The notes beneath the pieces were generated by a model, which searched no databases, was not told the origin of the DNA, and was given only the letters and a program-made list of their open reading frames with translations. Below are positions 8,190-41,881 of a stretch of 64,000 nucleotides of DNA, in pieces. The position numbers and the translations under genes are program-made. Each line of letters opens with the position of its first letter. Position 1 is the stretch's first letter. The stretch is from contig CAVZPR010000002.1 of the NCBI GenBank assembly GCA_963777285.1, positions 564,737 to 628,736 of the forward strand, in the 5' to 3' direction. The DNA comes from Candidatus Dormiibacterota bacterium. Its GTDB lineage: Bacteria > Chloroflexota > Dormibacteria > Aeolococcales > Aeolococcaceae.

Positions 8190-8261
8190 TAGCCCCAGCC
8201 GGGATCGAACCGGCGTTACCGGCGTGAAAGGCCGGTGTCCTGACCACTAGACGATGGGGCC
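8190..8261 (-). tRNA. tRNA-Glu (anticodon UUC)
   Basis: Manual cloverleaf: GGCCCCA-TC-GTCT-AGTGGTCA-GGAC-A-CCGGC-CTTTCAC-GCCGG-TAAC-GCCGG-TTCGATC-CCGGC-TGGGGCT-A. It has a G1-U72 wobble and no encoded CCA. Confidence 0.9.
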
Positions 8262-10748: not shown

Positions 10749-10886
10749 GGCGGCAACGTTAGCGGCGGGCCGCAGACCGGCCGGGGACAAAGCGCCCCAG
10801 GCGCCGCTGTCACGCGCCGTCCACAGGTTCGTCGCGGGCCGGAGACAGATCCGTTTCCCGGGGTCGGAGCCGGGACGATTCGCCTG

Positions 10887-12719
10887 ATGTCGGCAGTCAT
10901 CCCAGCGCGGGGGACATGGCGGTGGCGCGGCTCGCTGACGGGGGCGCAGCGGCTGATCGCGTTCGCCACCGCGCTCGGCGCCTGCGGCGTCGTGCTGCTC
11001 GCGACCGCGCCCGCAGACCAGGCCACCGCGACGTGGCTCAGCGTCCCCTGGTGGGCCGTGCTGGTGGCCTGCTACGCCACCAGCGTCGTCTCCGTGCAGC
11101 TGCGCGTCTCGGGCTTCGGCACGACGCTCTCGCTCAGCGACATCCCGCTGGCGGTCGGCCTGTTCACGGTCGAGCCGCGCATCCTCGCAGTCTGCTACGT
11201 CGCCGGCGTGCTCGCCGGCAACTGGACCCGGCGCGGCATGCAACCGCTGCTCGACTACAGCCGCCTGATGCTCGACGTCCTCTACGTCGCGGCAGCGGTG
11301 GTGGTGTTCGCTGCGGTCGGACCTGCCCGCGGCGACCCGGCGACGCTGCGCAGCGTCGTGGCACTCGTCGCGGCGATGCTGACGGCGGGATGCGTCGTCT
11401 CGCCGCTGGCGTTGAGCACGGGAAGCTACCTGTACGCGGGGCGCTTCGACGGTGGAGAGTCGGTTCGCGCACTGGCGTTGCAGGCCGCCGCCTCGATCAC
11501 CAGCACGTGCATCGCACTGGTCGGATTGGCGCTCGCGCACACCCGTCCGCTGCTCGCGCTGGCGCTGCTCCCGCCTGCGGCGTTCGTGCTGCTCGGCCAG
11601 CGCGCCGCGGGGGAGACGCGCCGTCGCGCCGACCGAATGGAATTCCTCTACCACACCAACGAGGTGCTGCACTCCAGCTCGCGCATCGACGAGCGCGCGG
11701 GCGAGATGCTGCGCGCCATGGCGGCGACGTTCGGGGTTGCCCGCGCCGAGCTGCTGCTGCTTCCCGAGGCGCGAGGCGCCGCCATCCGTTTCATCTCGCA
11801 GGGCCGGGACGATCGCGCCGAGGTCTCCTCCGCGGAGCTGACGTACGCCGAGCAGGAGACCCTCAACTTGCTTCGCGACGAACCCGTGCTCACCGCATCG
11901 GAGTCCGACGCCGCGTCGCCCGTCGGATTGCTGCTCGCCGAGCGGCACATGCGCTTCGGCACCGTGGCCGCGCTGCGTGGCCACGAGAAGCTGCGCGGCA
12001 TGCTGCTGCTGCTCGATCCGCTGCACGGCGATCTGGCACCCGCCGGACAGGAGCGCAACCTCCTCCTCGCCGTGTCGTCGCAGATCAGCGCCGCCTTCGA
12101 GAACGGACAGCTCGCCGGCGCCATCCGGGCCATGAGCGCGGAGAAGGACGAGCTCACGCGACGCGCCTTCTACGACCCGCTGACGCAGATCCCCAACCGT
12201 GCCCTCTTCCTCGACACCGTCAGCAAGGCGTTCACGCGCATGCCCGACACGCGCCGCGCGCTGGCCCTGATGTTCATCGACCTCGACGGGTTCAAGCAGA
12301 TCAACGACACGCACGGCCATGCGATGGGTGACGAGGTGCTCAACGGCATCGCGGCGCGGCTCCGTGCGCAGATCCGCAAGCTCGACATGGTCGCGCGCCT
12401 CGGCGGCGACGAGTTCGGCATCCTCATCAACGGCATGCGCAATCCCACCGACGCGCCCTTCGTGGCGCGGCGCATCGTGGCCATCCTGCACTCTCCGCTG
12501 CAGATCGACGGCCAGGTGGTGTGTGTGGGCGGCAGCGTCGGCGTCACCGTGGTCGACGACCCGCTCTCGCCGCTCACCCCCGATGAGGCGCTGCGCCGCG
12601 CCGACATGGCGATGTACCTGGCCAAGCGTCAGGGCAAGAACCGCTACGTCATCTTCGACAACCGCTCGCGCGACACGGTGATCGCGGCTGCACCCGAGGT
12701 GCTGGCGAATACCATGTGA
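10887..12719 (+). CDS. membrane-anchored GAF/GGDEF diguanylate cyclase
   Basis: This is the real part of the 1200-aa ORF 9117..12719, from ATG 10887 (MSAVIPARG...). It has a multi-TM N-terminus and a GAF-like middle. The cyclase motifs are YDPLTQIPNR, FIDLDGFKQINDTHGH and RLGGDEFG. Confidence 0.9.
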   Translation: MSAVIPARGTWRWRGSLTGAQRLIAFATALGACGVVLLATAPADQATATWLSVPWWAVLVACYATSVVSVQLRVSGFGTTLSLSDIPLAVGLFTVEPRILAVCYVAGVLAGNWTRRGMQPLLDYSRLMLDVLYVAAAVVVFAAVGPARGDPATLRSVVALVAAMLTAGCVVSPLALSTGSYLYAGRFDGGESVRALALQAAASITSTCIALVGLALAHTRPLLALALLPPAAFVLLGQRAAGETRRRADRMEFLYHTNEVLHSSSRIDERAGEMLRAMAATFGVARAELLLLPEARGAAIRFISQGRDDRAEVSSAELTYAEQETLNLLRDEPVLTASESDAASPVGLLLAERHMRFGTVAALRGHEKLRGMLLLLDPLHGDLAPAGQERNLLLAVSSQISAAFENGQLAGAIRAMSAEKDELTRRAFYDPLTQIPNRALFLDTVSKAFTRMPDTRRALALMFIDLDGFKQINDTHGHAMGDEVLNGIAARLRAQIRKLDMVARLGGDEFGILINGMRNPTDAPFVARRIVAILHSPLQIDGQVVCVGGSVGVTVVDDPLSPLTPDEALRRADMAMYLAKRQGKNRYVIFDNRSRDTVIAAAPEVLANTM

Positions 12720-12722
12720 GCG

Positions 12723-13499
12723 ATGCGCACGCCGCGGTGTCTCACCGTCGCGGCGTCGGACTCCGGCGGCGGCGCCGGGATCCAGGCGGACTTGCGCGCC
12801 TTCGCCGCTGCCGGCTGCTTCGGCGCCAGCGTCGTGGTGGCGGTCACGGCGCAGAACACCGTCGCGCTGACCGCGCTCCACGAGGTCCCGCCCCAGGTCG
12901 TCGACGCGCAGCTCGAGGTGGTGCTCGACGACATCGACGTCGACGCGGTGAAGACCGGCGCGCTGGTCTCGGCGACGATCGTCGAGGTCGTGGCAGGGAG
13001 GCTTCGCGGCCGCCACCTGCCGCTGGTGGTGGACCCCGTCGGCTTCGCCTCAACCGGCGCCCGGCTGGCGACGCCCGAGGCGGTCGAGGCGATGGTGGCG
13101 CTGCTGTTTCCGCTGGCCACGGTGGTCACCCCGAATCTCACCGAGGCCGCCGTGCTGGCGGGGGCGCCGGGCAGCCGCCGGGAGATGGCCGAGCGCATCG
13201 CCGCCCGCGGTGCCCGCGCCGTGCTGGTGACGGGCGGGCACGGCGAGCCGGTCGACCACCTGCTCATCGGCGAGCGCCACCTGGAGATCCCGGTGCAGCG
13301 CGTCGAGTTGGGCGCCACACACGGCTCGGGGTGCACCCACTCCGCGGTGCTGACCGCGGAGCTGGCCAAAGGCCGCTCGCTGGAGGACGCGGCCGTCACC
13401 GCCGCCGCTGTGACCGCGGCAGCGGTCTCCCGCGGCTTGGCCGACGTCGGCGCCGGCGACGGACCGGTGGACGTGCTCGACCTGGCCGCGCGACGCTAG
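12723..13499 (+). CDS. thiD: hydroxymethylpyrimidine/phosphomethylpyrimidine kinase
   Basis: LTVAASDSGGGAGIQADLRAF...KTGAL...GSGCTHSA are the typical ThiD motifs. Confidence 0.9.
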   Translation: MRTPRCLTVAASDSGGGAGIQADLRAFAAAGCFGASVVVAVTAQNTVALTALHEVPPQVVDAQLEVVLDDIDVDAVKTGALVSATIVEVVAGRLRGRHLPLVVDPVGFASTGARLATPEAVEAMVALLFPLATVVTPNLTEAAVLAGAPGSRREMAERIAARGARAVLVTGGHGEPVDHLLIGERHLEIPVQRVELGATHGSGCTHSAVLTAELAKGRSLEDAAVTAAAVTAAAVSRGLADVGAGDGPVDVLDLAARR

Positions 13500-14110
13500 G
13501 GCGGGGAGCTCCAGCGCCGCCGCACCACGATCGCCAGCCCCACGAGGCAGCCGAGGTCGGCGAGGAGCAGCGCCGGTCCTGGCTCGAGTCCGTCGCCGAA
13601 GGTCAGCCCCGCGACGGGGCTGAGCGGCTCGATCGGGGGGATGCGCACGCCCGCCAGGCCGAGGCCACCTGCGGCTGCATGCGACTGCGACAGCGGCGCG
13701 AAGGGAGATGGGTCGGCCGCTGCGCGCACCGGCTGGCGCGAAGCGGATGCAGACCCGCCTCCGGACGCGCGGCTCGCGGGCGCGGCCGCTGCTGCGGGGC
13801 CGGTCGGGGCCGGGACCGCCGGCACGGGCGCGGCGCTGGGTTGCGGCGCCGCCGTCGCGGTGGTTCCGAGCGTGGGAGCCGGGTCGGCGCTGGGTGCCGG
13901 ATCCATCCCTCCGTCGGTGGGGGCGCCCTGGCCGGTCGGGGCGGGAGTCGCCTCGGCGGTGGGCGCGGGCGTGCCGCTCGGGGAAGGCGTCGGCGGCGGC
14001 AGGTGGCGGCGGTGGTGGGCCTGCTGCAGCAGCGGCGACGTCGCCGCGTCCACACGGGTGGCGGTGGTTGCGGCCAGCGCGGCGCAGGACACCAGGGCGA
14101 GCGCGAACAT
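13496..14110 (-). CDS. secreted Pro/Ala-rich protein with a C-terminal hydrophobic anchor
   Basis: ORF 13496..14203 trimmed to the signal-like MFALALVSCAALAAT. The body is a long P/A/T-rich region. The C-terminus LLLADLGCLVGLAIVVRRRW is a TM segment followed by basic residues. Confidence 0.5.
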   Translation of the reverse strand: MFALALVSCAALAATTATRVDAATSPLLQQAHHRRHLPPPTPSPSGTPAPTAEATPAPTGQGAPTDGGMDPAPSADPAPTLGTTATAAPQPSAAPVPAVPAPTGPAAAAAPASRASGGGSASASRQPVRAAADPSPFAPLSQSHAAAGGLGLAGVRIPPIEPLSPVAGLTFGDGLEPGPALLLADLGCLVGLAIVVRRRWSSPP

Positions 14111-14286
14111 CTCGAGCGCACGTCCACCCCGTCCGCTCCTTGTTCCCCTGCTAGTCCCCAGCAAGAACACGGCGCCATCAGTGTCGCCGCGCCGCGGCCG
14201 CACGGATCGCCCATCGGCGCTTCGCGACGCGGCTTCACCAGGCCGCGATGCGGACGCCGTTCAGGATGTTGCGACCGGCAGACCTC

Positions 14287-14715
14287 TCAGCGGCGGTGCG
14301 CCGAGGTCACGTTGCGGAAGCGGCGCACGATTTCCGGGAGCAGGTTGACCGCCACCACCGGGTGGGCAAGCAGGAACTGCCGGAACTGGTTCACCGGCAG
14401 CGTCACGCAGCGCAGCTGCGTGTCCGCTCGCACGGACGCGGTGCGCGGACCGCCGTCGAGGGCCGCCACCTCGCCGAAGAAGTCGCCGGGGCCAAGCGTG
14501 GCGATCACGTTGCCGTCGATGATCACCGAGGCGGTGCCGTCCAGGATGATGAAGAACTCGGGCCCCTGCATCCCCTCGGTGAGGATGCCGTGGCCGGCGA
14601 GGTATGTGGCGTCGTCGAAGCGCGACACGACGTCCTGCAGCTCCTGCCTGCTGACGTCGCGGAAGAGCTGCATCCTTTCCAGCGTGGGGATCACGTCCTC
14701 GCGCGTGGTGGCCAT
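14287..14715 (-). CDS. cyclic-nucleotide-binding domain protein (stand-alone)
   Basis: 142-aa ORF. GDFFGEVAALDGGPRTASVRA is the FGE...RTA phosphate-binding cassette. Confidence 0.85.
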   Translation of the reverse strand: MATTREDVIPTLERMQLFRDVSRQELQDVVSRFDDATYLAGHGILTEGMQGPEFFIILDGTASVIIDGNVIATLGPGDFFGEVAALDGGPRTASVRADTQLRCVTLPVNQFRQFLLAHPVVAVNLLPEIVRRFRNVTSAHRR

Positions 14716-14778
14716 CTGATCATCCCTCCGTGGCTGGTGCTGGTGGAGTGTATCTGCGCCGCAGGGGCGCCCGCGGCG

Positions 14779-16413
14779 TCAGTGGCCGGTGGCCAGCTCC
14801 ACCGCCTTGACCAGCAGCAGCAGCACCGCGACCACCAGGTAGCTGCTCAGCGCGTACAGCGCCACCTGCCGGCCGCGCGACGCCGCCGGCCGCGAGAGCA
14901 GCGCCAGCGGTGGCATGCGCCACGTTTCCCGCTCCTGGCGGCCCGGCGGCGCTGTCGCCGCCCGGTGCGAGCGCATCGAGACCACGGCGATGCCCACCAC
15001 CGCGACCGCGAGAGCCGGCACCAGCACCCGCATCAGCGCGCTCACATCGAGCGCTGGATAGATCGTGGTCACGACCAGCGTCATCGAGAGCGCGAGCAGC
15101 ACCGCGAGGATGACCGCCGCCAGCGCGTTGAGCCACTCGCGGTTGACCCACGGCCCCAGGATGTCACGGTCGTTGCACAGCATGAGTGCGAAGAGGATCG
15201 CTCCCGGGAGCAACAAGCCGGCCAGCGCCTGCACCGCGGTGGTGAACAGGCCCAACGGCGCGTTCGGGATGAGAACGATTCCCGCAGCGACCGCGACCAG
15301 CGCGGTGAAGCTCGCGTAGAACGGCTTCGCCTCACGCCAGGAGCGATGCAGCGAGTTGCGGATCCCGAATGCGTCGCCGAATGCATACGAAGTGGCCAGC
15401 GTCACCGCGCTCGCGCCGATGATCGATGCGTCGATGAGCACCACGGCGAAGATGGCGCCCAGCGCGTTGCCGCCGTGTCGCGCCAGGCCCCGCGCGACCG
15501 TCTCGCCGTTGACGTAGTTGCCTGCATCGGCGGTGCCGTGGAATGCTGCGGCTGCGGCCAGCATGATCGCCGCGGCACCGATCACCACCACGAACGCGCC
15601 GACCACCGTGTCGGTGCGCTCGTACGCGATCCAGCGCGGCGTGATGCGCTTGTCGACCACGTTGGACTGCTGGAAGAACAGTTGCCACGGCGTGACCGTC
15701 GTACCCACGACCGCGATGACGAGCAGGATCGCGTTGCCGCTCAGGCCGCCCTGGATGCCGGGAACGAAGAGGTCGTGCGCGGCCACGCCCCATGACGGCC
15801 GGCTGAGCACCGCCAAGGGGATCACCAGCAGGTTGCTGACGATGAAGACGAACATGAGCCGTTCCCATGTCTGGAACTGGCCACTCACCGTGATGGCGAC
15901 GAGCAGCACGGCGACGACCGGCACCGCAACGAGCGGTGTCAGGCCGAAGTACTCGGCGCCGAGCGCCACACCCACGAACTCGGTGGCCAGCGTGAGGAAG
16001 TTGAGCAGGAAGAGTCCGGACACGGAGTAGAGGCCCCACAGCTTGCCGAAGCGTTCGAAGATGAGCCGCGCGTGGCCCACGCCGGTGACCGCGCCGAGGC
16101 GCACCACCATCTCCTGGTTGACGATGAGCACCGGGACGAGCAGCAGCAGCGTCCACAGCAGGCTGGTGCCGTAGTTCTGCCCCGCCTGTGCGTACGTGGC
16201 CACACCGCCCGCGTCGTTGTCACCGACCATGACGATGAGTCCCGGGCCCATGATCGCCGCCAGCGCCAGCAGCCGCTGCCGCCATGTGCGCTGCGTGGCG
16301 CGCTCTCCCTGACGGATGGTGCCGAACGCGCCGCGGATGTCACCGGCGCGCGCATCGTCGAGCACCGCCGTGGCGCCTCCGCGAGCCGGGCTGCGAACCT
16401 TCTCGTCGACCAA
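14779..16413 (-). CDS. NRAMP (SLC11) family transporter with a non-canonical metal-site motif
   Basis: 544-aa ORF with a TTG start at 16413 and a GGGAGG ribosome-binding site. It reads GPGLIVMVGDNDAGGVATYAQAGQNYGTSLLW where canonical members have DPGN. It reads VGTTVTPWQLFFQQS where canonical members have A..MPHN. It also has an extra C-terminal extension with TM segments. Confidence 0.85.
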   Translation of the reverse strand: MVDEKVRSPARGGATAVLDDARAGDIRGAFGTIRQGERATQRTWRQRLLALAAIMGPGLIVMVGDNDAGGVATYAQAGQNYGTSLLWTLLLLVPVLIVNQEMVVRLGAVTGVGHARLIFERFGKLWGLYSVSGLFLLNFLTLATEFVGVALGAEYFGLTPLVAVPVVAVLLVAITVSGQFQTWERLMFVFIVSNLLVIPLAVLSRPSWGVAAHDLFVPGIQGGLSGNAILLVIAVVGTTVTPWQLFFQQSNVVDKRITPRWIAYERTDTVVGAFVVVIGAAAIMLAAAAAFHGTADAGNYVNGETVARGLARHGGNALGAIFAVVLIDASIIGASAVTLATSYAFGDAFGIRNSLHRSWREAKPFYASFTALVAVAAGIVLIPNAPLGLFTTAVQALAGLLLPGAILFALMLCNDRDILGPWVNREWLNALAAVILAVLLALSMTLVVTTIYPALDVSALMRVLVPALAVAVVGIAVVSMRSHRAATAPPGRQERETWRMPPLALLSRPAASRGRQVALYALSSYLVVAVLLLLVKAVELATGH

Positions 16414-16417
16414 GTCG

Positions 16418-16471
16418 GACCTCCCACCGTCGCTGATGGCAAGGCTGAGCGGGGCGTCCGCTCAGGAGGTC
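16418..16471 (-). promoter_or_regulatory. possible SD-sequestering structure in the NRAMP leader
   Basis: On the mRNA, GACCTCC (plus strand 16465-16471) is complementary to the SD GGAGGTC (16418-16424). Together they enclose a perfect 8-bp hairpin, CTGAGCGG-n5-CCGCTCAG (16445-16465). Confidence 0.3.
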
Positions 16472-16608
16472 ACGTGCTGCGACCCCTCCGTGCGGGCGCG
16501 CCCCGACGTTGCCGGGAACGGGGACTGCCGTCGCCGTCCATGCACACCTCAGCAACGCCCGGCCGTCAGAGCGCATCCGAGCCGGGGAACGGCCGGCGGG
16601 CTCCGGCC

Positions 16609-17994
16609 TCATCCGCGCGCGGCGCGAACTCTCCTCGCCTCTCGATCTCGATGCGGCTCTGCCCGCGGACAGTGTACCTCGCGCTTTCCGCGCCTCTCGC
16701 ACAGCGTCAGTCGGGGTCGGCCTCCGACCGCCGTCGCCACGAGTTCGGGCAGCATCGCCTCGAGCACGTCGTCGACGGAGATGACGCCGACGACGCGATC
16801 CTCGGCGTCGACGACCGGCGCGACCGTGAGGTTGTAGTCGGCCATGAGACGCGCCACCTCGGGGAAGTCGTCACCCACTTCCACCGACACCTTGCCGCGC
16901 TGTGCGTGCGCCACCACGTGCTCGTCCGGCTGCGCGCGCAGCAGCGTGACCAGGGGAGCCGCGCCGACCAGCTTGCCGTCGCCGTCGACGACGAAGACGT
17001 CGGCGGACTGCTGCGCCGACGCGCTTGCGGTGCGCACCGCGTCGAGCGCTTCGGCGACGGTCGCCGACTGCTGCACCGAGACGTAGTCGGGGTTCATCAG
17101 ACCGCCGGCGCTGTCGGCGTTGTAGCTGAGCAGCGCGCGCACCTTGGCCTGGTGCGCCGGCGGCAGCAGCGCCAGGATCGGGGCGCGCCGGTCCTGGTCC
17201 AGCTCCGTGATCAGGTCGGCCGCGTCGTCTGCCGCCATGCCCGCCAGCACCGCGGCCGCCTCGGTGTCGGATCGCTGGCGCAGGAACTCCACCTGATGCT
17301 CGGTGTTCAGCTCTTCGAAGACGTCCGCTTCGAGCTCCGGGTCGGCGTGCACCGCGGTGATGATCTCCTCGCCCTCGTCGTGCGATGCGTGCTCCACGAT
17401 GTCGGCGATCTGCGCCGGGTGCAGCATGCGCAGGCGCCGCAGCGGCATCAGCAGACGCGACGTGGGCACGTGGCGCACGAACGGCTCCACGTTCATCCAG
17501 TCGACGAACGCGCGCGTGTCGTGCGCGCCGCGGCGCATCGGAGCGGGCAGCAGCCGCCGCAGAAGACCGCGCGAGCTGGCGTCGACGCCGACCACACGCC
17601 AGGCGCCGCGCACCACCGCGAGCTCGATGTCATGCGCGTTGATGAGCCGTCCGCTCTCGACGCTGATCATCCGCCGCGACAGCACGTCCTCGCGCAGCAG
17701 CACCTCACCCTGGCGGCGCTCGAAGCGCAGCAGGCTCAATGTCTCGCCGGTGAGCGACACGCTGCCGGGCTTCATCTCGCCCACGCGGTCGCGGGGCACG
17801 AACAGGAGACGGCCGGCGATGCGGCCGAGGAGGCCGGTGAGCGGCGGGTAGCCGCTGTCGGCGAGCCGCACGATGACGTCGTCGACCCTGCCGAGGGGTT
17901 CGCCGGCGCGGTCGACCAGACGGCTGCCCAGGACGTCGCGCAGCCAGAGGCGGGCGGCGGGCACCGCCACCTCGCGGGCGCGTGAGACGGCCAT
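16609..17994 (-). CDS. soluble PRC-barrel / MgtE N-terminal domain / CBS-pair protein, with no MgtE membrane domain
   Basis: ORF 16609..18078 trimmed to MAVSRAREV, because the first 28 codons have poor GC3. The N-terminus is PRC-like (LVDRAGEPLGRVDDVIV). The MgtE_N-like helical region is HPAQIADIVE...AAVLAGMAADDAADLI. Two CBS motifs follow. The ORF ends about 45 aa after the CBS pair. Confidence 0.8.
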   Translation of the reverse strand: MAVSRAREVAVPAARLWLRDVLGSRLVDRAGEPLGRVDDVIVRLADSGYPPLTGLLGRIAGRLLFVPRDRVGEMKPGSVSLTGETLSLLRFERRQGEVLLREDVLSRRMISVESGRLINAHDIELAVVRGAWRVVGVDASSRGLLRRLLPAPMRRGAHDTRAFVDWMNVEPFVRHVPTSRLLMPLRRLRMLHPAQIADIVEHASHDEGEEIITAVHADPELEADVFEELNTEHQVEFLRQRSDTEAAAVLAGMAADDAADLITELDQDRRAPILALLPPAHQAKVRALLSYNADSAGGLMNPDYVSVQQSATVAEALDAVRTASASAQQSADVFVVDGDGKLVGAAPLVTLLRAQPDEHVVAHAQRGKVSVEVGDDFPEVARLMADYNLTVAPVVDAEDRVVGVISVDDVLEAMLPELVATAVGGRPRLTLCERRGKREVHCPRAEPHRDREARRVRAARG

Positions 17995-18163
17995 ACGCCC
18001 GGAGTCTGCCACGCCACGAGATGCCGCAGATCGTCCGCGCGGTGTCCTCGCCGCCTCGGCACAGTCCGCCCATGGCACGGCGATGTCCCTGGCGGTGGCG
18101 CCTCCGCGGAGCGGGTCTCGGCGGCATAAACTCAGCGGCGGTCAGGAAGGAGGGCGACGCGCG

Positions 18164-18760
18164 GTGGCCAGGGCGAACGGTCGCATCGGTCTCGGTGTCT
18201 TCCTGCGCGACCGGGCACGGAGCATCGTCGTGGTGACCCAGGACGGCGAGCTGGCCGTGGCCCTTCGCGACTGCGTTGACGGCTCCCGAGCGCTGATCCG
18301 GGACGTGCGCCCGGCCGAGCTCGGCCAGGCCGCGGAAGCGTGCCGGCCGTGGCCGTGGATGGTGGTGTGCGACGGCGGCGCCGAGCCCGGCGGCCTGGCT
18401 GAGCTCCTCACCAGGCGGCCCGTGCTGCTCGCCTGGCTGGGCACGCCGCCCGGGACGCTCGCGCCGCGCGCCGTGTCCACGCAACGCTTTGGGACGCTCG
18501 CCGCCGCCGTCAACGGCGCGCTCGAGGCCATGGTCGGGGGCATGCGGCTGGCGCCGTGGTCGGGTGTCCAGCTCCCGTCCGGCCGCGTGGTGCGCGCCGC
18601 CGACCTGGAAGCCCTGATCGCCGCGCACCCCGCGGCGCTGCCGCTGCCGCTGCGCGCCTTTCGCACCGCTTCGCGCACGCTCGGCGCGCACGGCGTCGCT
18701 TGGCGACCGCAGCGCACCGCGGCGGGCGTGGTGCTGGCGCCGCGGGGAGCCGCGGCGTGA
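18164..18760 (+). CDS. hypothetical protein (~198 aa), first gene of the REC/GHKL operon
   Basis: ORF 17873..18760 trimmed to GTG 18164, preceded by GGAAGGAGGG. It shows an alternating beta-alpha pattern (SIVVVTQDGE..., PWMVVCDGG) that is loosely receiver-like. Its stop overlaps the next start as GTGA. Confidence 0.5.
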   Translation: MARANGRIGLGVFLRDRARSIVVVTQDGELAVALRDCVDGSRALIRDVRPAELGQAAEACRPWPWMVVCDGGAEPGGLAELLTRRPVLLAWLGTPPGTLAPRAVSTQRFGTLAAAVNGALEAMVGGMRLAPWSGVQLPSGRVVRAADLEALIAAHPAALPLPLRAFRTASRTLGAHGVAWRPQRTAAGVVLAPRGAAA

Positions 18761-19407
18761 GAGCGAACCCCGAGGTGCTCCTGGTGGAGGACGACCCGGA
18801 GACGCTGGAGCAGCTGCGCGGCCATTTCGAGCGCAAGCGCTTCCATCCGCTGGCGGCGCGCAGCGCCACGCGCGCCCTGTCGCTCATCGAGAACAACATG
18901 CACTCCAGCCGCCCGGTGCTGGCGGTCGTGGACTGGGATCTGAGCAAAGCGCCCGACAATCGCTGGAACAGCGGCGACGTCCTGGCGCGCCTGGCGCGCG
19001 ACATCGCGGACTGCCTCGTCGTGGTGTACTCGCAGAACATCGACGCCTTTCGCGTGCGCAGCGAGATTCAGCGCGCCCACCCGCGCGCGTGGCTGCACGA
19101 CAAGCGCGACGGTGATCAGTCGCTGGTCGATCGCGTGTCCCGGCTGCTGGACCAGCGTGTCGGCGACCTCCGCGTGCAGGACGGCACCGTCGTCATCCAC
19201 GTGCCCACGCACGACGAGCACCATCACCGTGAGGCGGTGCGCCTGGTGGTGCACCACCCGGAGATCGTCACCTTCCATTCCGACACCGCCACCAAGGCCG
19301 TGCGCCGGTTCGGTGAGTGGCTGACGCGGCACCAGTCCACGGTGCGACTGGTCAGCCTGGGCAACCGCAAGTACCGGCTCGCGGTCACGCCGCCTGCCGG
19401 CGAGTAG
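18757..19407 (+). CDS. response-regulator receiver domain protein with an unrecognised His-rich C-terminal domain
   Basis: ORF 18556..19407 trimmed to GTG 18757. It has EVLLVEDDPETLEQL and VLAVVDWDLS (acidic pocket and putative phospho-Asp). The C-terminus reads HVPTHDEHHHREAVRLVVHH. Confidence 0.7.
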   Translation: MRANPEVLLVEDDPETLEQLRGHFERKRFHPLAARSATRALSLIENNMHSSRPVLAVVDWDLSKAPDNRWNSGDVLARLARDIADCLVVVYSQNIDAFRVRSEIQRAHPRAWLHDKRDGDQSLVDRVSRLLDQRVGDLRVQDGTVVIHVPTHDEHHHREAVRLVVHHPEIVTFHSDTATKAVRRFGEWLTRHQSTVRLVSLGNRKYRLAVTPPAGE

Positions 19408-19410
19408 CCC

Positions 19411-20724
19411 GTGCAGCTGAGCCTCGCCGACCTGCGCGACCTGCCGCTCGCGGCGGCGCTGGTCGAGCGCGGCGGCACGCCCGTGGCGCACACGCCGGAG
19501 TGGGAGGGCACGGGCCCGGGCTGCGTCGCCTATCCGGTGCGCGGCAAGCGGCTGCTCGTGTCCACGGCGCCGGCCGATCTGACCGCGCGGGCCGTGCTGC
19601 AAGAGCTGCTGGCGGCGCTCGACTCCGCCGTCGCCAAGGCATCCGGTGCGCACGCGATGCGCATGCGCATGGTCGCGGCATCGCTGCGGCTGCTTGCGGG
19701 CGACGCGGTCTCCGCCGCCGGCACCACCGTGGACGCATACGAGCACGCGCTCGCCGGCATCGCCGCGCGCACGTCACTGCGTGCGCGGGTGGGCGACGCC
19801 AGCGTGGAGCCGATTCCCTCACCGGAGGTTGTCGCGCTCGTGCTGGTGCAGCTCGCCGTCAACGCGGAGCGCCACGGGCAGGCGCGCACGGTGGAGCTGA
19901 CGAACCGCGGTGCGACCTTCAGCGTCGCCTGGCGCGACTCCGGGCGTGCTCACCCTCGGGTGTCCACCGCGCGACGGCGCGGGGAGCGGGAGCGCTGGGG
20001 CCTGGGCTTCGCGCGCGTCGCCGCCGACGCCCTGGGCGGCACCGTGTATCCCCCGCGGCACGAAGGTGGCGGCACGGTCGCCGTGTTCGAGCTGGGTCTG
20101 GGGCGGCTGGGCCTGCCGCTGGCGCTGGTGCGCGGCGACGTCGTGTTGCGAGCCACCCGTGCCTGGGACGAGGAAACCTCGCTGGTCCCCGGCACCAACG
20201 TGCGCGACACGACGCGGCTGGCGGCGCTGGCCGCCGCGGCACGCGTGCACCCGGGAGCCGTGGCGCGCAGCGACGGTTGGTCGGCGCGGCTGGTGCACGA
20301 CAGCCTGTGGGTCGCGGTCCCCCCCGACGACGTCGCCGACAGGATGCGCGACGTGCTCGACGGCATGGCGCACGAGCGCGCCCTGCTCGAGGGGATGGAC
20401 GAGGCGGCGCGGGTGCGGATTCGCGCGCTCACGCTGGCTCTCGGTGCGTGCCTGGGCCGGCCGGTGCCCCGTGTGCCTGCAGCGGCATGGCGGCAGCGCA
20501 TGCACGGGCTCAGCGAAGCTCTCGACGTGCGCCTCGCGGTCCCCGACTTCGAAGGCACGGGCGCCGTCGACCCCGATGTCGCCGCGGTGCTCGCGGCGCG
20601 CGCGGGCGCCGGCTTCGACATCGATGGTAACGCCATGTGGCTGCGGCTCAACGACGCCGCGGACGACGATCCGATGGTGCACGCGCTGACCCCGCCAGGA
20701 GCGCACCGCGTCCGTCTCGCCTAG
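19411..20724 (+). CDS. GHKL/HATPase_c-like ATPase protein without a recognisable H-box or TM segment
   Basis: 437-aa ORF with N-box-like LVQLAVNAERHG and G-box-like RWGLGFARVAADALGG. About 200 aa of unassigned C-terminal sequence follows. It starts 3 nt after the upstream stop. Confidence 0.65.
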   Translation: MQLSLADLRDLPLAAALVERGGTPVAHTPEWEGTGPGCVAYPVRGKRLLVSTAPADLTARAVLQELLAALDSAVAKASGAHAMRMRMVAASLRLLAGDAVSAAGTTVDAYEHALAGIAARTSLRARVGDASVEPIPSPEVVALVLVQLAVNAERHGQARTVELTNRGATFSVAWRDSGRAHPRVSTARRRGERERWGLGFARVAADALGGTVYPPRHEGGGTVAVFELGLGRLGLPLALVRGDVVLRATRAWDEETSLVPGTNVRDTTRLAALAAAARVHPGAVARSDGWSARLVHDSLWVAVPPDDVADRMRDVLDGMAHERALLEGMDEAARVRIRALTLALGACLGRPVPRVPAAAWRQRMHGLSEALDVRLAVPDFEGTGAVDPDVAAVLAARAGAGFDIDGNAMWLRLNDAADDDPMVHALTPPGAHRVRLA

Positions 20725-20742
20725 CGCCGCTAGAATCGCGGC

Positions 20743-21195
20743 GTGAGCTGGTTCCTGCTGCTCAAGTCTCTGCACGTGCTGTCGGCCATCGTCGCGGTCG
20801 GCGCCAACGCGACGTACGCGCTGTGGTCGGTGCGCGCCCGCAGCGATCCGGCACATCTGGGATTCACGCTGCGGGGCATCAAGTTCATCGACGACCGCCT
20901 GGCCAATCCCGCCTACGGCGTGCTCCTGGTCACGGGGCTGATCATGGCGTTCACCACGTACAGCATCACCACGACGTGGATCCTCATCGGCCTCGGGATC
21001 TACATCGCCATCGCGGTGCTGGGCGTCTTCGTGTTCTCGCCGCTGCTGCGCCGCCAGATGGAGGCGCTGGACACCGCCGGGCCGGAGAGCGAAGCCTACC
21101 GGCGCGCGGACGCCCAGGGGCGCGGCATCGGCATGTTCCTGGGCGTGCTCGCGATCGCGGTGGTCTTCGTGATGGTGTTCAAGCCGATCGCGTAG
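20743..21195 (+). CDS. DUF2269-like integral membrane protein
   Basis: 150-aa ORF with four TM helices and the N-terminus MSWFLLLKSLHVLSAIVAVGAN. Confidence 0.65.
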   Translation: MSWFLLLKSLHVLSAIVAVGANATYALWSVRARSDPAHLGFTLRGIKFIDDRLANPAYGVLLVTGLIMAFTTYSITTTWILIGLGIYIAIAVLGVFVFSPLLRRQMEALDTAGPESEAYRRADAQGRGIGMFLGVLAIAVVFVMVFKPIA

Positions 21196-41621: not shown

Positions 41622-41695
41622 GCCCCGTTCGTCTAGTGGCCCAGGACACCGCCCTCTCAAGGCGGAGATCATCGGTTCGAATCCGATACGGGGTA
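41622..41695 (+). tRNA. tRNA-Glu (anticodon CUC)
   Basis: Manual cloverleaf: GCCCCGT-TC-GTCT-AGTGGCCCA-GGAC-A-CCGCC-CTCTCAA-GGCGG-AGATC-ATCGG-TTCGAAT-CCGAT-ACGGGGT-A. It has a G1-U72 wobble and no encoded CCA. Confidence 0.9.
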
Positions 41696-41829
41696 CTCGA
41701 AGTTGATGTCGTTAGCGTTGCGAGAGGGCGGTGTCCATCGGAGGGTGAGGCGATGCGGCTCTGCTGCATCGCCGAGGGAGGCGTGCCTCCCTGACAAAGC
41801 TCGGGGTCCCCGGGCGGCTTGCCGCCTGG

Positions 41830-41881
41830 GGACACCGCCCTCTCAAGGCGGAGATCATCGGTTCGAATCCGATACGGGGTA
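41830..41881 (+). repeat. exact 52-nt direct repeat of the 3' part of tRNA-Glu(CUC), from the D-stem 3' strand to the discriminator
   Basis: 41830-41881 is identical to 41644-41695. The upstream sequence lacks a canonical acceptor 5' strand and D-loop, having TCCCCGG-GCGGCTTGCCGC instead. Confidence 0.85.

Follow-up and report, generated by a model that had tools for sequence, protein, structure and literature searches.

A further example of the Mg-type NRAMP transporter and soluble MgtE-like protein gene pair, with four subclade-specific features, in a Dormibacterota genome

What does an NRAMP-like transporter import when its canonical DPGN and MPH metal-site residues are missing, and what does a soluble protein resembling the cytosolic part of the MgtE Mg2+ channel do beside it? 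The question is raised by a locus in 64,000 nucleotides (hereafter the window) of a Candidatus Dormiibacterota genome (assembly GCA_963777285.1, contig CAVZPR010000002.1, positions 564,737 to 628,736; G+C ~71%). The minus strand, on which all features of the locus described below lie, carries three open reading frames (ORFs) head to tail, each where an initial annotation of the sequence had placed it: the partner gene (16609..17994; 461 aa as assembled), encoding a tandem PRC-barrel, an MgtE N-domain and a CBS pair; an NRMT-type SLC11/NRAMP transporter with a TTG start (14779..16413; 544 aa); and a stand-alone cyclic-nucleotide-binding (cNMP) protein (14287..14715; 142 aa). For all three genes, the nearest relatives (68-78% protein identity) come from metagenome-assembled genomes of Candidatus Dormibacterota; the partner protein of the window itself has a database record, from a 1.42-Mb contig. 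We find that the locus is a further example of a gene pair described in 2014, a Mg-type NRAMP transporter with a soluble MgtE-like protein, and that it has four features specific to its subclade, namely a transporter with 13 predicted helices, a partner with a basic tail, a leader between the two genes, and the cNMP neighbor. The best explanation of the pair, and one that we consider probable, is an importer of the NRMT clade restrained by its Mg2+-sensing soluble partner.

The Pfam Nramp profile matches the transporter over positions 1-356 of 357 (E = 1e-73), and a HMMER search of all solved structures returned EleNRMT of Eggerthella lenta (PDB 7QIA) as the best relative (E = 9e-59, ~33% identity), with the other solved NRAMP-family chains at 8e-18 or weaker and Deinococcus MntH (DraNramp) at ~1e-11. 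The NCBIfam MntH model scored 100 bits against a cut-off of 430. In the HMMER alignment, NDAGG of the transporter (D67, G70) stands opposite the canonical DPGN and is identical to N54-D55-A56-G57-G58 of EleNRMT, and GTTVTPW (T238, T241, W243) stands opposite the canonical GAxxMPH stretch, where EleNRMT has GTTIAPW. The two motifs, D-A-G-G in transmembrane helix 1 (D67..G70, 16204..16215) and T-T-V-T-P-W in helix 6 (T238..W243, 15685..15702; A-x-x-M-P-H in canonical members), thus provide equivalents of EleNRMT D55 (D67), G58 (G70), T224 (T238) and W229 (W243), with T241 at the Met/Ala227 position, W243 in place of the first helix-6b His, and the helix-10 Gln present as Q395 (Q379 in EleNRMT). 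The manual alignment behind the initial annotation, which had the Asn of DPGN replaced by Gly, no Met in helix 6 and Trp in place of His, was therefore correct, and alignment to the solved structures revealed no canonical DPGN or MPH residues elsewhere in the transporter.

Together, D67/G70, T238/T241 and Q395 match the published DxxG-TxxA/T signature by which the NRMT clade is defined (Ramanadane et al., 2022; PMC8806188; PDB 7QIA), plus its Gln. Among 256 clade members sampled, the D and G of the helix-1 motif are present in 242, the combination D-G/T-A-W/Q in 214, and D-G/T-T-W/Q in 20, the transporter studied here included. EleNRMT, an 11-helix protein, transports Mg2+ and Mn2+ but not Ca2+, does so without H+ coupling, and requires T224 for Mg2+ transport (PMC8806188). 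The transporter is accordingly a member of the NRMT/NrmT clade of SLC11/NRAMP, the NRAMP-related Mg2+ clade with which the initial annotation had linked it. By homology, and jointly with the partner mechanism considered below, it would probably be a proton-uncoupled Mg2+ importer, with Mn2+ probably a substrate as well.

We evaluated the conservation of the gene pair in two samples of related loci (L-numbers below are the identifiers of the loci compared), a close one drawn from genomes and metagenomes, with relatives at 56-73% identity, and a diverse one seeded deliberately with EleNRMT, the partner being sought by profile searches of all ORFs. Of the 130 close loci with enough upstream sequence, 119 have a partner homolog immediately upstream in the same orientation, and the three-part partner adjoins the transporter, upstream or downstream, in ~71 of 79 diverse loci, so that the co-occurrence of MgtE_N-CBS-only genes with such transporters, proposed as a check on the initial annotation, proved to be conserved. 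The diverse loci with the pair span Eggerthella sinensis, Woesearchaeota, Bathyarchaeia, Thermoplasmata, Deltaproteobacteria, Chlorobi, Nitrospirae and Chloroflexi, and the Eggerthella sinensis transporter, which has the partner gene directly upstream, is 96% identical to EleNRMT. Most of the exceptions without a partner are genes of Acidobacteria and Bacteroidetes that show a DxxA signature; such NRMT-like genes with helix-1 DxxA had no partner within 5 kb in L210, L225, L231, L233, L235, L236 and L237. Two different partner-transporter pairs stand head to head in L073, L187, L188 and L189, some of these being Streptosporangiaceae contigs, and other genomes (L035, L060, L267, L289, L292 and L296) have NRMT genes in tandem, with a separate leader (described below) for each gene.

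Neither the pair nor the idea of feedback is new here, both having been published in 2014. Shin et al. (2014; PMC4072509) named NrmT of C. acetobutylicum, showed Mg2+ rescue, and reported the pair of NrmT and an MgtE fragment, for which they proposed "cytoplasmic feedback regulation" or a chaperone role. They also noted that an M-box precedes many, although not all, nrmT/MgtE-fragment operons. Among the loci compared here, M-box riboswitches stand upstream of two transporter-then-partner operons from Deltaproteobacteria assemblies (L196, 4271-4448, 134 bits; L203, 3729-3905, 130 bits), which links the clade to Mg2+ independently. In the EleNRMT paper, MgtE figures solely as an unrelated channel (PMC8806188), and in the literature searched we found no later papers dealing with the partner, nor any mentioning PRC, MgtE and Nramp together.

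The partner was initially described as a 461-aa upstream protein with a PRC-like N-terminus, an MgtE N-domain, two CBS motifs and no membrane domain, and both Pfam and structure models agree with this description. In Pfam, MgtE_N scores E = 6.5e-21 and the two CBS stretches E = 2.2e-15; the PRC match is weak, and there is none to the MgtE membrane domain. Residues 189-417 can be aligned to the Thermus thermophilus MgtE cytosolic domain (E = 4e-32), and the best fold matches of the partner model (mean predicted local distance difference test score, pLDDT, of 81.5) are MgtE cytosolic domains. A separate model of residues 1-182 predicts two beta-barrels in the N-terminal 180 residues, a tandem PRC-barrel (residues ~15-81 and ~97-138, pLDDT ~90; 17581..17952) for which Foldseek returned CdpB1/B2 (8qzo, E = 4e-5, ~145 columns), the reaction-centre H subunit, RimM and CdvA. 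Pfam PRC is detected in 26 of the 33 aligned homologs on which conservation in the partner family was judged (best E = 2.6e-7), reaches 43.8 bits in the Eggerthella partner and scores above the Pfam threshold in partners of the diverse loci. The possibility that the PRC region was a peculiarity of the window's subclade was ruled out by this occurrence in partners across NRMT clades.

The remainder of the partner consists of the MgtE N-domain (17116..17442), which includes the invariant D224, D256 and D260, and the CBS pair (16729..17100), which includes D409, E412 and N388. In the alignment to T. thermophilus MgtE, the Mg7 ligand E59 corresponds to D224, the Mg4 ligands D91 and D247 to D256 and D409, and the Mg6 ligand D95 to D260, all four being invariant in the partner family, and the Mg5 ligand D250 corresponds to the nearly invariant E412. 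In MgtE, mutation of the ligands of these sites impairs Mg2+-dependent closing (Maruyama et al., 2018, from which the list of sites was taken). The correspondence of these residues to ligands of MgtE closing, together with the sequence and fold matches to MgtE cytosolic domains, favors a sensor role for the partner.

We suggest that the partner would retain the Mg2+-dependent closure of MgtE between its N-domain and CBS domains, that this closure would be used to restrain the transporter once cytoplasmic Mg2+ is sufficient, and that the partner may act at the membrane through its PRC barrels and a conserved basic W-R-R-R end, perhaps by docking on a conserved loop, predicted to be cytoplasmic, between two extra transporter helices of the subclade. 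In this scheme, contact between the two proteins, the direction of the regulation and the transported substrate are what we infer, next to the family, signature, adjacency and retention of Mg4, Mg6 and Mg7 ligands observed above. The split Mg2+ uptake system initially envisaged thus gains from the NRMT membership, the conserved MgtE_N-CBS-only neighbor and the acidic ligands of three Mg2+ sites, but loses its proposed cyclic-nucleotide input (see below).

The partner C-terminus varies by clade. Coriobacteriia partners (EleNRMT type) end in an acidic linker and a hydrophobic helix, those of Actinomycetota, Dormibacterota and Chloroflexota in LPxxW(R/K)(R/K)R, and those of lineages with the partner downstream stop right after the CBS pair. 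The hydrophobic-helix and basic-tail ends suggest a location at the membrane, which would be consistent with direct action on the transporter but is no proof of it. The Coriobacteriia helix (L161-L184) is ~22 residues long, hence these partners would be membrane-anchored, and the partners of L181 and L182 have a longer multi-helix end without a match to the MgtE membrane domain.

In the window itself, the partner was described as stopping about 45 aa after the CBS pair, which holds for the ORF as assembled but not for the family: homologs all end in ...VDDVLEAMLPxSWRRRxEADxD (consensus ...LPxSWRRRAEADxD), ~13 aa after the CBS pair and its LP motif. The assembled protein instead reads ...AMLPELVATAVGG... 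for 45 further residues that lack homology (homologs cover at most 90% of the 461-aa ORF) and are modeled as disordered (pLDDT < 50). The window reads ...CTG CCC GAA CTC GTG G... where relatives have CCC GAC TCC TGG or CCC GAT TCG TGG (L-P-D-S-W), and one A fewer at 16743..16746 restores ...LPDSWRRRSEADPD-stop. The ancestral C-terminal frame, SWRRRSEADPD-stop (16707..16742), was recognized from translation of the neighboring frame and the family consensus; the frame is shifted 13 codons ahead of the ancestral stop, and the 45-aa tail overlaps the leader and its -10-like box. Since the SWRRR end lies in the neighboring frame and all homologs stop earlier, we interpret the tail as the product of a one-base insertion, which is either a fault of the assembly or a genuine lesion. 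No public run holds the window sequence (share of words at most 0.06) and no near-identical contig exists for comparison, the closest relatives being 68-73% identical; look-ups of called genes did not return the exact proteins. In several long-read metagenome assemblies (L017, L018, L043, L188, L222) the partner gene is broken into two or three ORFs, which suggests residual indel errors in such assemblies and makes an indel error plausible for the window's insertion.

The transporter too carries an addition at its C-terminus. Hydropathy and the consensus of 80 homologs predict two extra membrane helices (~457-480 and ~517-540; 14782..15063) within an extension (residues 451-544) whose Arg-rich loop between the helices has the conserved motif R..WRMPPLALL.RP.WS.GR. 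Based on the positive-inside rule and an 11-helix core with a cytoplasmic N-terminus, this loop should face the cytoplasm. Of 160 close loci, 159 encode the extension. Within the diverse sample, actinobacterial transporters of the window's type are its sole carriers, and those of EleNRMT type, of archaea and of proteobacteria all lack it. Across both samples, the extra-helix variant is confined to the window's own subclade, with its actinobacterial, Dormibacterota and Chloroflexota members. We also considered a strict trade-off that would couple partners without a membrane helix to extra-helix transporters; it is ruled out by Chloroflexi that combine a basic-tail partner with a transporter of 11-helix length.

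Between the ancestral stop of the partner and the start of the transporter lies a 293-nt leader (16414..16706), recognized from blocks shared with Dormibacterota loci and common to L001, L002, L003, L005, L081-L091 and L240-L298. A genome-wide scan for its 22-base core gave 63 matches, nearly all in Dormibacterota, and 52 of the 57 testable ones stand directly before an NRMT gene, whose TTG start is itself common to nearly all transporters with related leaders. Just past the ancestral stop is a -10-like hexamer, TACACT (16671..16676), noticed by sequence inspection only; 12 leaders have one of TACACT, TAGACT, TAGAAT and TAGAGT at the equivalent position. A scan for sigma-70 consensus promoters and terminators gave nothing useful and did not detect this box. 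The transporter appears to have its own promoter. At the other end of the leader, the transporter's Shine-Dalgarno (SD) sequence GGGAGGUC (16418..16425, 4 nt before the TTG) can pair with an anti-SD sequence GACCUCCU (16464..16471). Seven of the anti-SD:SD pairs hold throughout the 20 leaders compared (and in 9-11 of the 11 leaders of a first set), and the helix encloses two hairpins, forming a three-way junction. This 3' module has a predicted folding energy of -31.8 kcal/mol in the window (z = -2.0) and -35.2 in L001 (z = -2.6), the whole stretch from the upstream ORF to the start being no more stable than shuffled sequences (z = -1.47). Both strands of the anti-SD:SD helix are invariant, so that no covariation is possible, and no Rfam family matches the leader. 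Judged by its conservation, the leader is a real cis element with a predicted hidden ribosome-binding site.

The leader also contains an upstream ORF (uORF), MDGDGSPRSRQRRGAPARRGRST-stop (16470..16541), preceded by a GAGG ribosome-binding site and with a stop that overlaps the anti-SD; a competing hairpin between the 3' part of the uORF and the anti-SD is predicted at -17 kcal/mol. Over 60 loci have related uORFs, which take three forms (MDGGDSPQSRQ.., MEDGDSRRSG.. and MDREQPRSTQP..). The resemblance is to MgtL, the mgtA leader peptide in E. coli and Salmonella, whose N-terminal EPDP destabilizes the ribosome at low Mg2+ and thereby controls mgtA; the window's uORF, which starts MDGDGSP, has D, E or P at three of residues 2-7 and is MgtL-like by this count. 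It is tempting to hypothesize that both the uORF and Mg2+ govern the leader: in Dormibacterota and some Actinomycetota, translation of the uORF to its stop would remodel the three-way junction in which GACCUCCU hides the transporter's ribosome-binding site. A full scheme, in which such an MgtL-like Mg2+-responsive translational switch would be joined to docking of the partner's W-R-R-R end on the extra-helix loop to give two layers of Mg2+ feedback, seems unlikely to hold as a whole.

The leader could instead act purely as RNA, for instance by sensing metal or temperature through its structure or by serving as a processing site, with the uORF untranslated, a reading to which we give a substantial chance, if somewhat short of even. 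It agrees with the substitution pattern, which reveals no coding signature: codon positions vary 80/87/57 and 50/45/47 within leader types, so that third positions are no more variable than first and second ones. It agrees likewise with the nearly invariant nucleotides of the first 11 uORF codons, and with the lack of an SD before the commonest uORF type. Translation is favored, in turn, by the fact that three leader types of differing nucleotide sequence all start with Met and a D/E/P-rich stretch, by the strong GGAGG of the Solirubrobacterales type (MDREQPRSTQP..), and by the strand bias of ORFs with an SD and at least three D/E/P among residues 2-7 (25 on the forward versus 2 on the reverse strand).

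Two other RNA elements were observed in related loci. An extra hairpin of the form GAUGAG-stem-AGCCCG-stem lies upstream of the uORF (window 16591-16613, minus strand) in only some leaders, including L003, with a G:C to A:U change, and L088, where the stem is fully different (CGCAG/CUGCG). Just after the partner stop, Acidimicrobiia loci (L009, L011, L014, L042, L062) have a different hairpin with a conserved loop, UCUGAAAC, and covarying stems (GGAGG/CCUCC, GGGG/CCCC, GGGGG/CCCCC), followed downstream by an SD and another short ORF.

Several observations weigh against a Mg2+-sensing partner that restrains a Mg2+ importer. On the side of the sensor, the MgtE Mg5 ligand D226 corresponds to N388, an invariant Asn in the partner family, and D226N/D250A is known to weaken Mg2+ sensing in MgtE. 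The plug-helix ligands E258 and D259 of the Mg2/Mg3 sites have no counterpart in the partner, and the ATP-site residues Y170, R187, D188, N203 and F227 of MgtE (Tomita et al., 2017) are replaced by D332, V349, T350, Q365 and L389 in an ungapped alignment block. With all five replaced, ATP sensing as in MgtE is unlikely and has probably been lost, and the three differences together imply that the sensor is unable to work exactly as in MgtE. As assembled, moreover, the partner lacks the conserved C-terminus. On the side of function, co-expression of the Acidobacterium capsulatum fragment left rescue unchanged, and the A. capsulatum transporter itself seemed to prefer Mn2+ (PMC4072509). No Rfam match, M-box or other known RNA family, was found at E <= 1 in positions 12000-21000 and none relevant at gathering score in the whole window, and the same search of 10 close relatives returned none relevant. 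The Thr at the Met position is, finally, a minority variant, yet one inside the published signature.

Some of these points would fit a transporter that mainly imports Mn2+ or another divalent cation, with the partner sensing that ion or some other signal. The A. capsulatum homolog, which has an MgtE-like neighbor and lacks an M-box as the window does, behaves mainly as a Mn2+ transporter (PMC4072509), EleNRMT also transports Mn2+, and the less common Thr occupies the Met position here. However, the transporter keeps T238, whose EleNRMT counterpart is needed for Mg2+, likewise the D, G and Q of the signature, the partner retains MgtE Mg2+ ligands, and elsewhere M-box riboswitches control the same gene pair. 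We therefore consider a mainly Mn2+ system to be a minor possibility, and a Mg2+ importer restrained by its partner to be the better account.

The partner might otherwise be a structural, assembly or tethering subunit, with PRC barrels that anchor the transporter to another complex, or a metal chaperone, as mentioned by Shin et al. (PMC4072509). The tandem PRC barrels equal the MgtE part in conservation, their best fold matches (CdpB, CdvA, reaction-centre H) are protein-protein adaptors, and NrmT and EleNRMT transport without a partner. A pure scaffold would nonetheless have no reason to keep invariant residues that are exactly the inter-domain Mg2+ ligands of MgtE, and we regard such a role as improbable compared with Mg2+ sensing.

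Downstream, as initially described, is the stand-alone cNMP protein, with Pfam cNMP_binding as its sole domain (E = 1.5e-18) and a phosphate-binding cassette, FGEVAALDGGPRTASV, that is intact and invariant in three orthologs. It is no CRP/FNR-type regulator by its domains, since it lacks a helix-turn-helix and scores 37.5 bits against a cut-off of 266 for NCBIfam CRP, over the N-terminal domain only. A role as working third component that confers cyclic-nucleotide control on the transporter is very improbable: despite the same strand, the intact cassette, a gap measured as 63 nt from the transporter stop to the cNMP start, and an identical layout in L003 and L081, the two closest relatives, the gene has its own ribosome-binding site (GGAGG), encodes a binding domain only, has no cyclase among its neighbors (a GGDEF protein, ThiD and unknowns), and is absent from 143 of the 145 related loci with enough downstream sequence. 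Its occurrence in 2 of 145 loci rules it out as a conserved component, so that the cyclic-nucleotide input initially suggested is unlikely as a general part of the system, and the gene is a lineage-specific neighbor, acquired within this narrow group, rather than a core member.

Around the locus (window 10800-13499, 18556-21195, 8190-8261 and 41622-41881) are a membrane GGDEF diguanylate cyclase, ThiD (phosphomethylpyrimidine kinase), a DUF2269 protein and two ORFs without a Pfam match, one of which has a receiver-like N-terminus by eye; three tRNA genes lie elsewhere in the window.

The module has been known since 2014; the locus thus provides one more well-documented case of it and leaves the picture of NRAMP-type Mg2+ transport unchanged. 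EleNRMT was characterized without a partner, although its nearest sequenced relative (Eggerthella sinensis) carries a partner with a putative membrane anchor directly upstream. For experiments on the partner, our survey offers as handles the kept Mg2+ ligands, the probable loss of ATP sensing, the tandem PRC-barrel that makes up the N-terminal 40%, and a clade-variable C-terminus that points to the membrane. If the leader is a true switch, it would constitute a second, riboswitch-independent control of Mg2+ import in poorly studied soil phyla.

Compared with known systems, the leader resembles MgtL in having a short ORF in front of a gene for a putative Mg2+ importer, with D/E/P and small residues after the Met (MDGDGSP, MDGGDSP, MEDGDS, MDREQP), and in that this ORF adjoins alternative RNA pairings. 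It differs in that there is no sequence homology, the uORF is without a coding signature, control would be translational, by hiding of the ribosome-binding site, rather than Rho-dependent or transcriptional, and the sign of regulation is not deducible from the sequence. The M-box (ykoK) riboswitch, which precedes NRMT-partner operons in some lineages, is absent from the window and the 10 close relatives tested.

Among the proteins, the transporter shares with C. acetobutylicum NrmT and EleNRMT the SLC11 fold, DxxG in helix 1, TxxA/T in helix 6, the Trp, and the Gln in helix 10, but compared with EleNRMT it has Thr rather than Ala at the Met position, 13 predicted helices rather than 11, and an added conserved loop predicted to be cytoplasmic. 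The partner shares with the MgtE channel of T. thermophilus (PDB 2YVX, 2YVY) the N-domain, the CBS pair and the ligands of Mg4, Mg6 and Mg7, but has neither transmembrane domain nor plug helix and has gained two N-terminal PRC barrels. Closest of all is the operon of nrmT and the "MgtE cytoplasmic fragment" (Shin et al., 2014), an identical two-gene module with the same proposed role, whose adjacency is documented here on a far larger sample. Relative to that description, the window has a different leader in place of an M-box, and the partner is a protein of ~420-460 aa whose N-terminal 40% is, throughout the clade, a tandem PRC-barrel.

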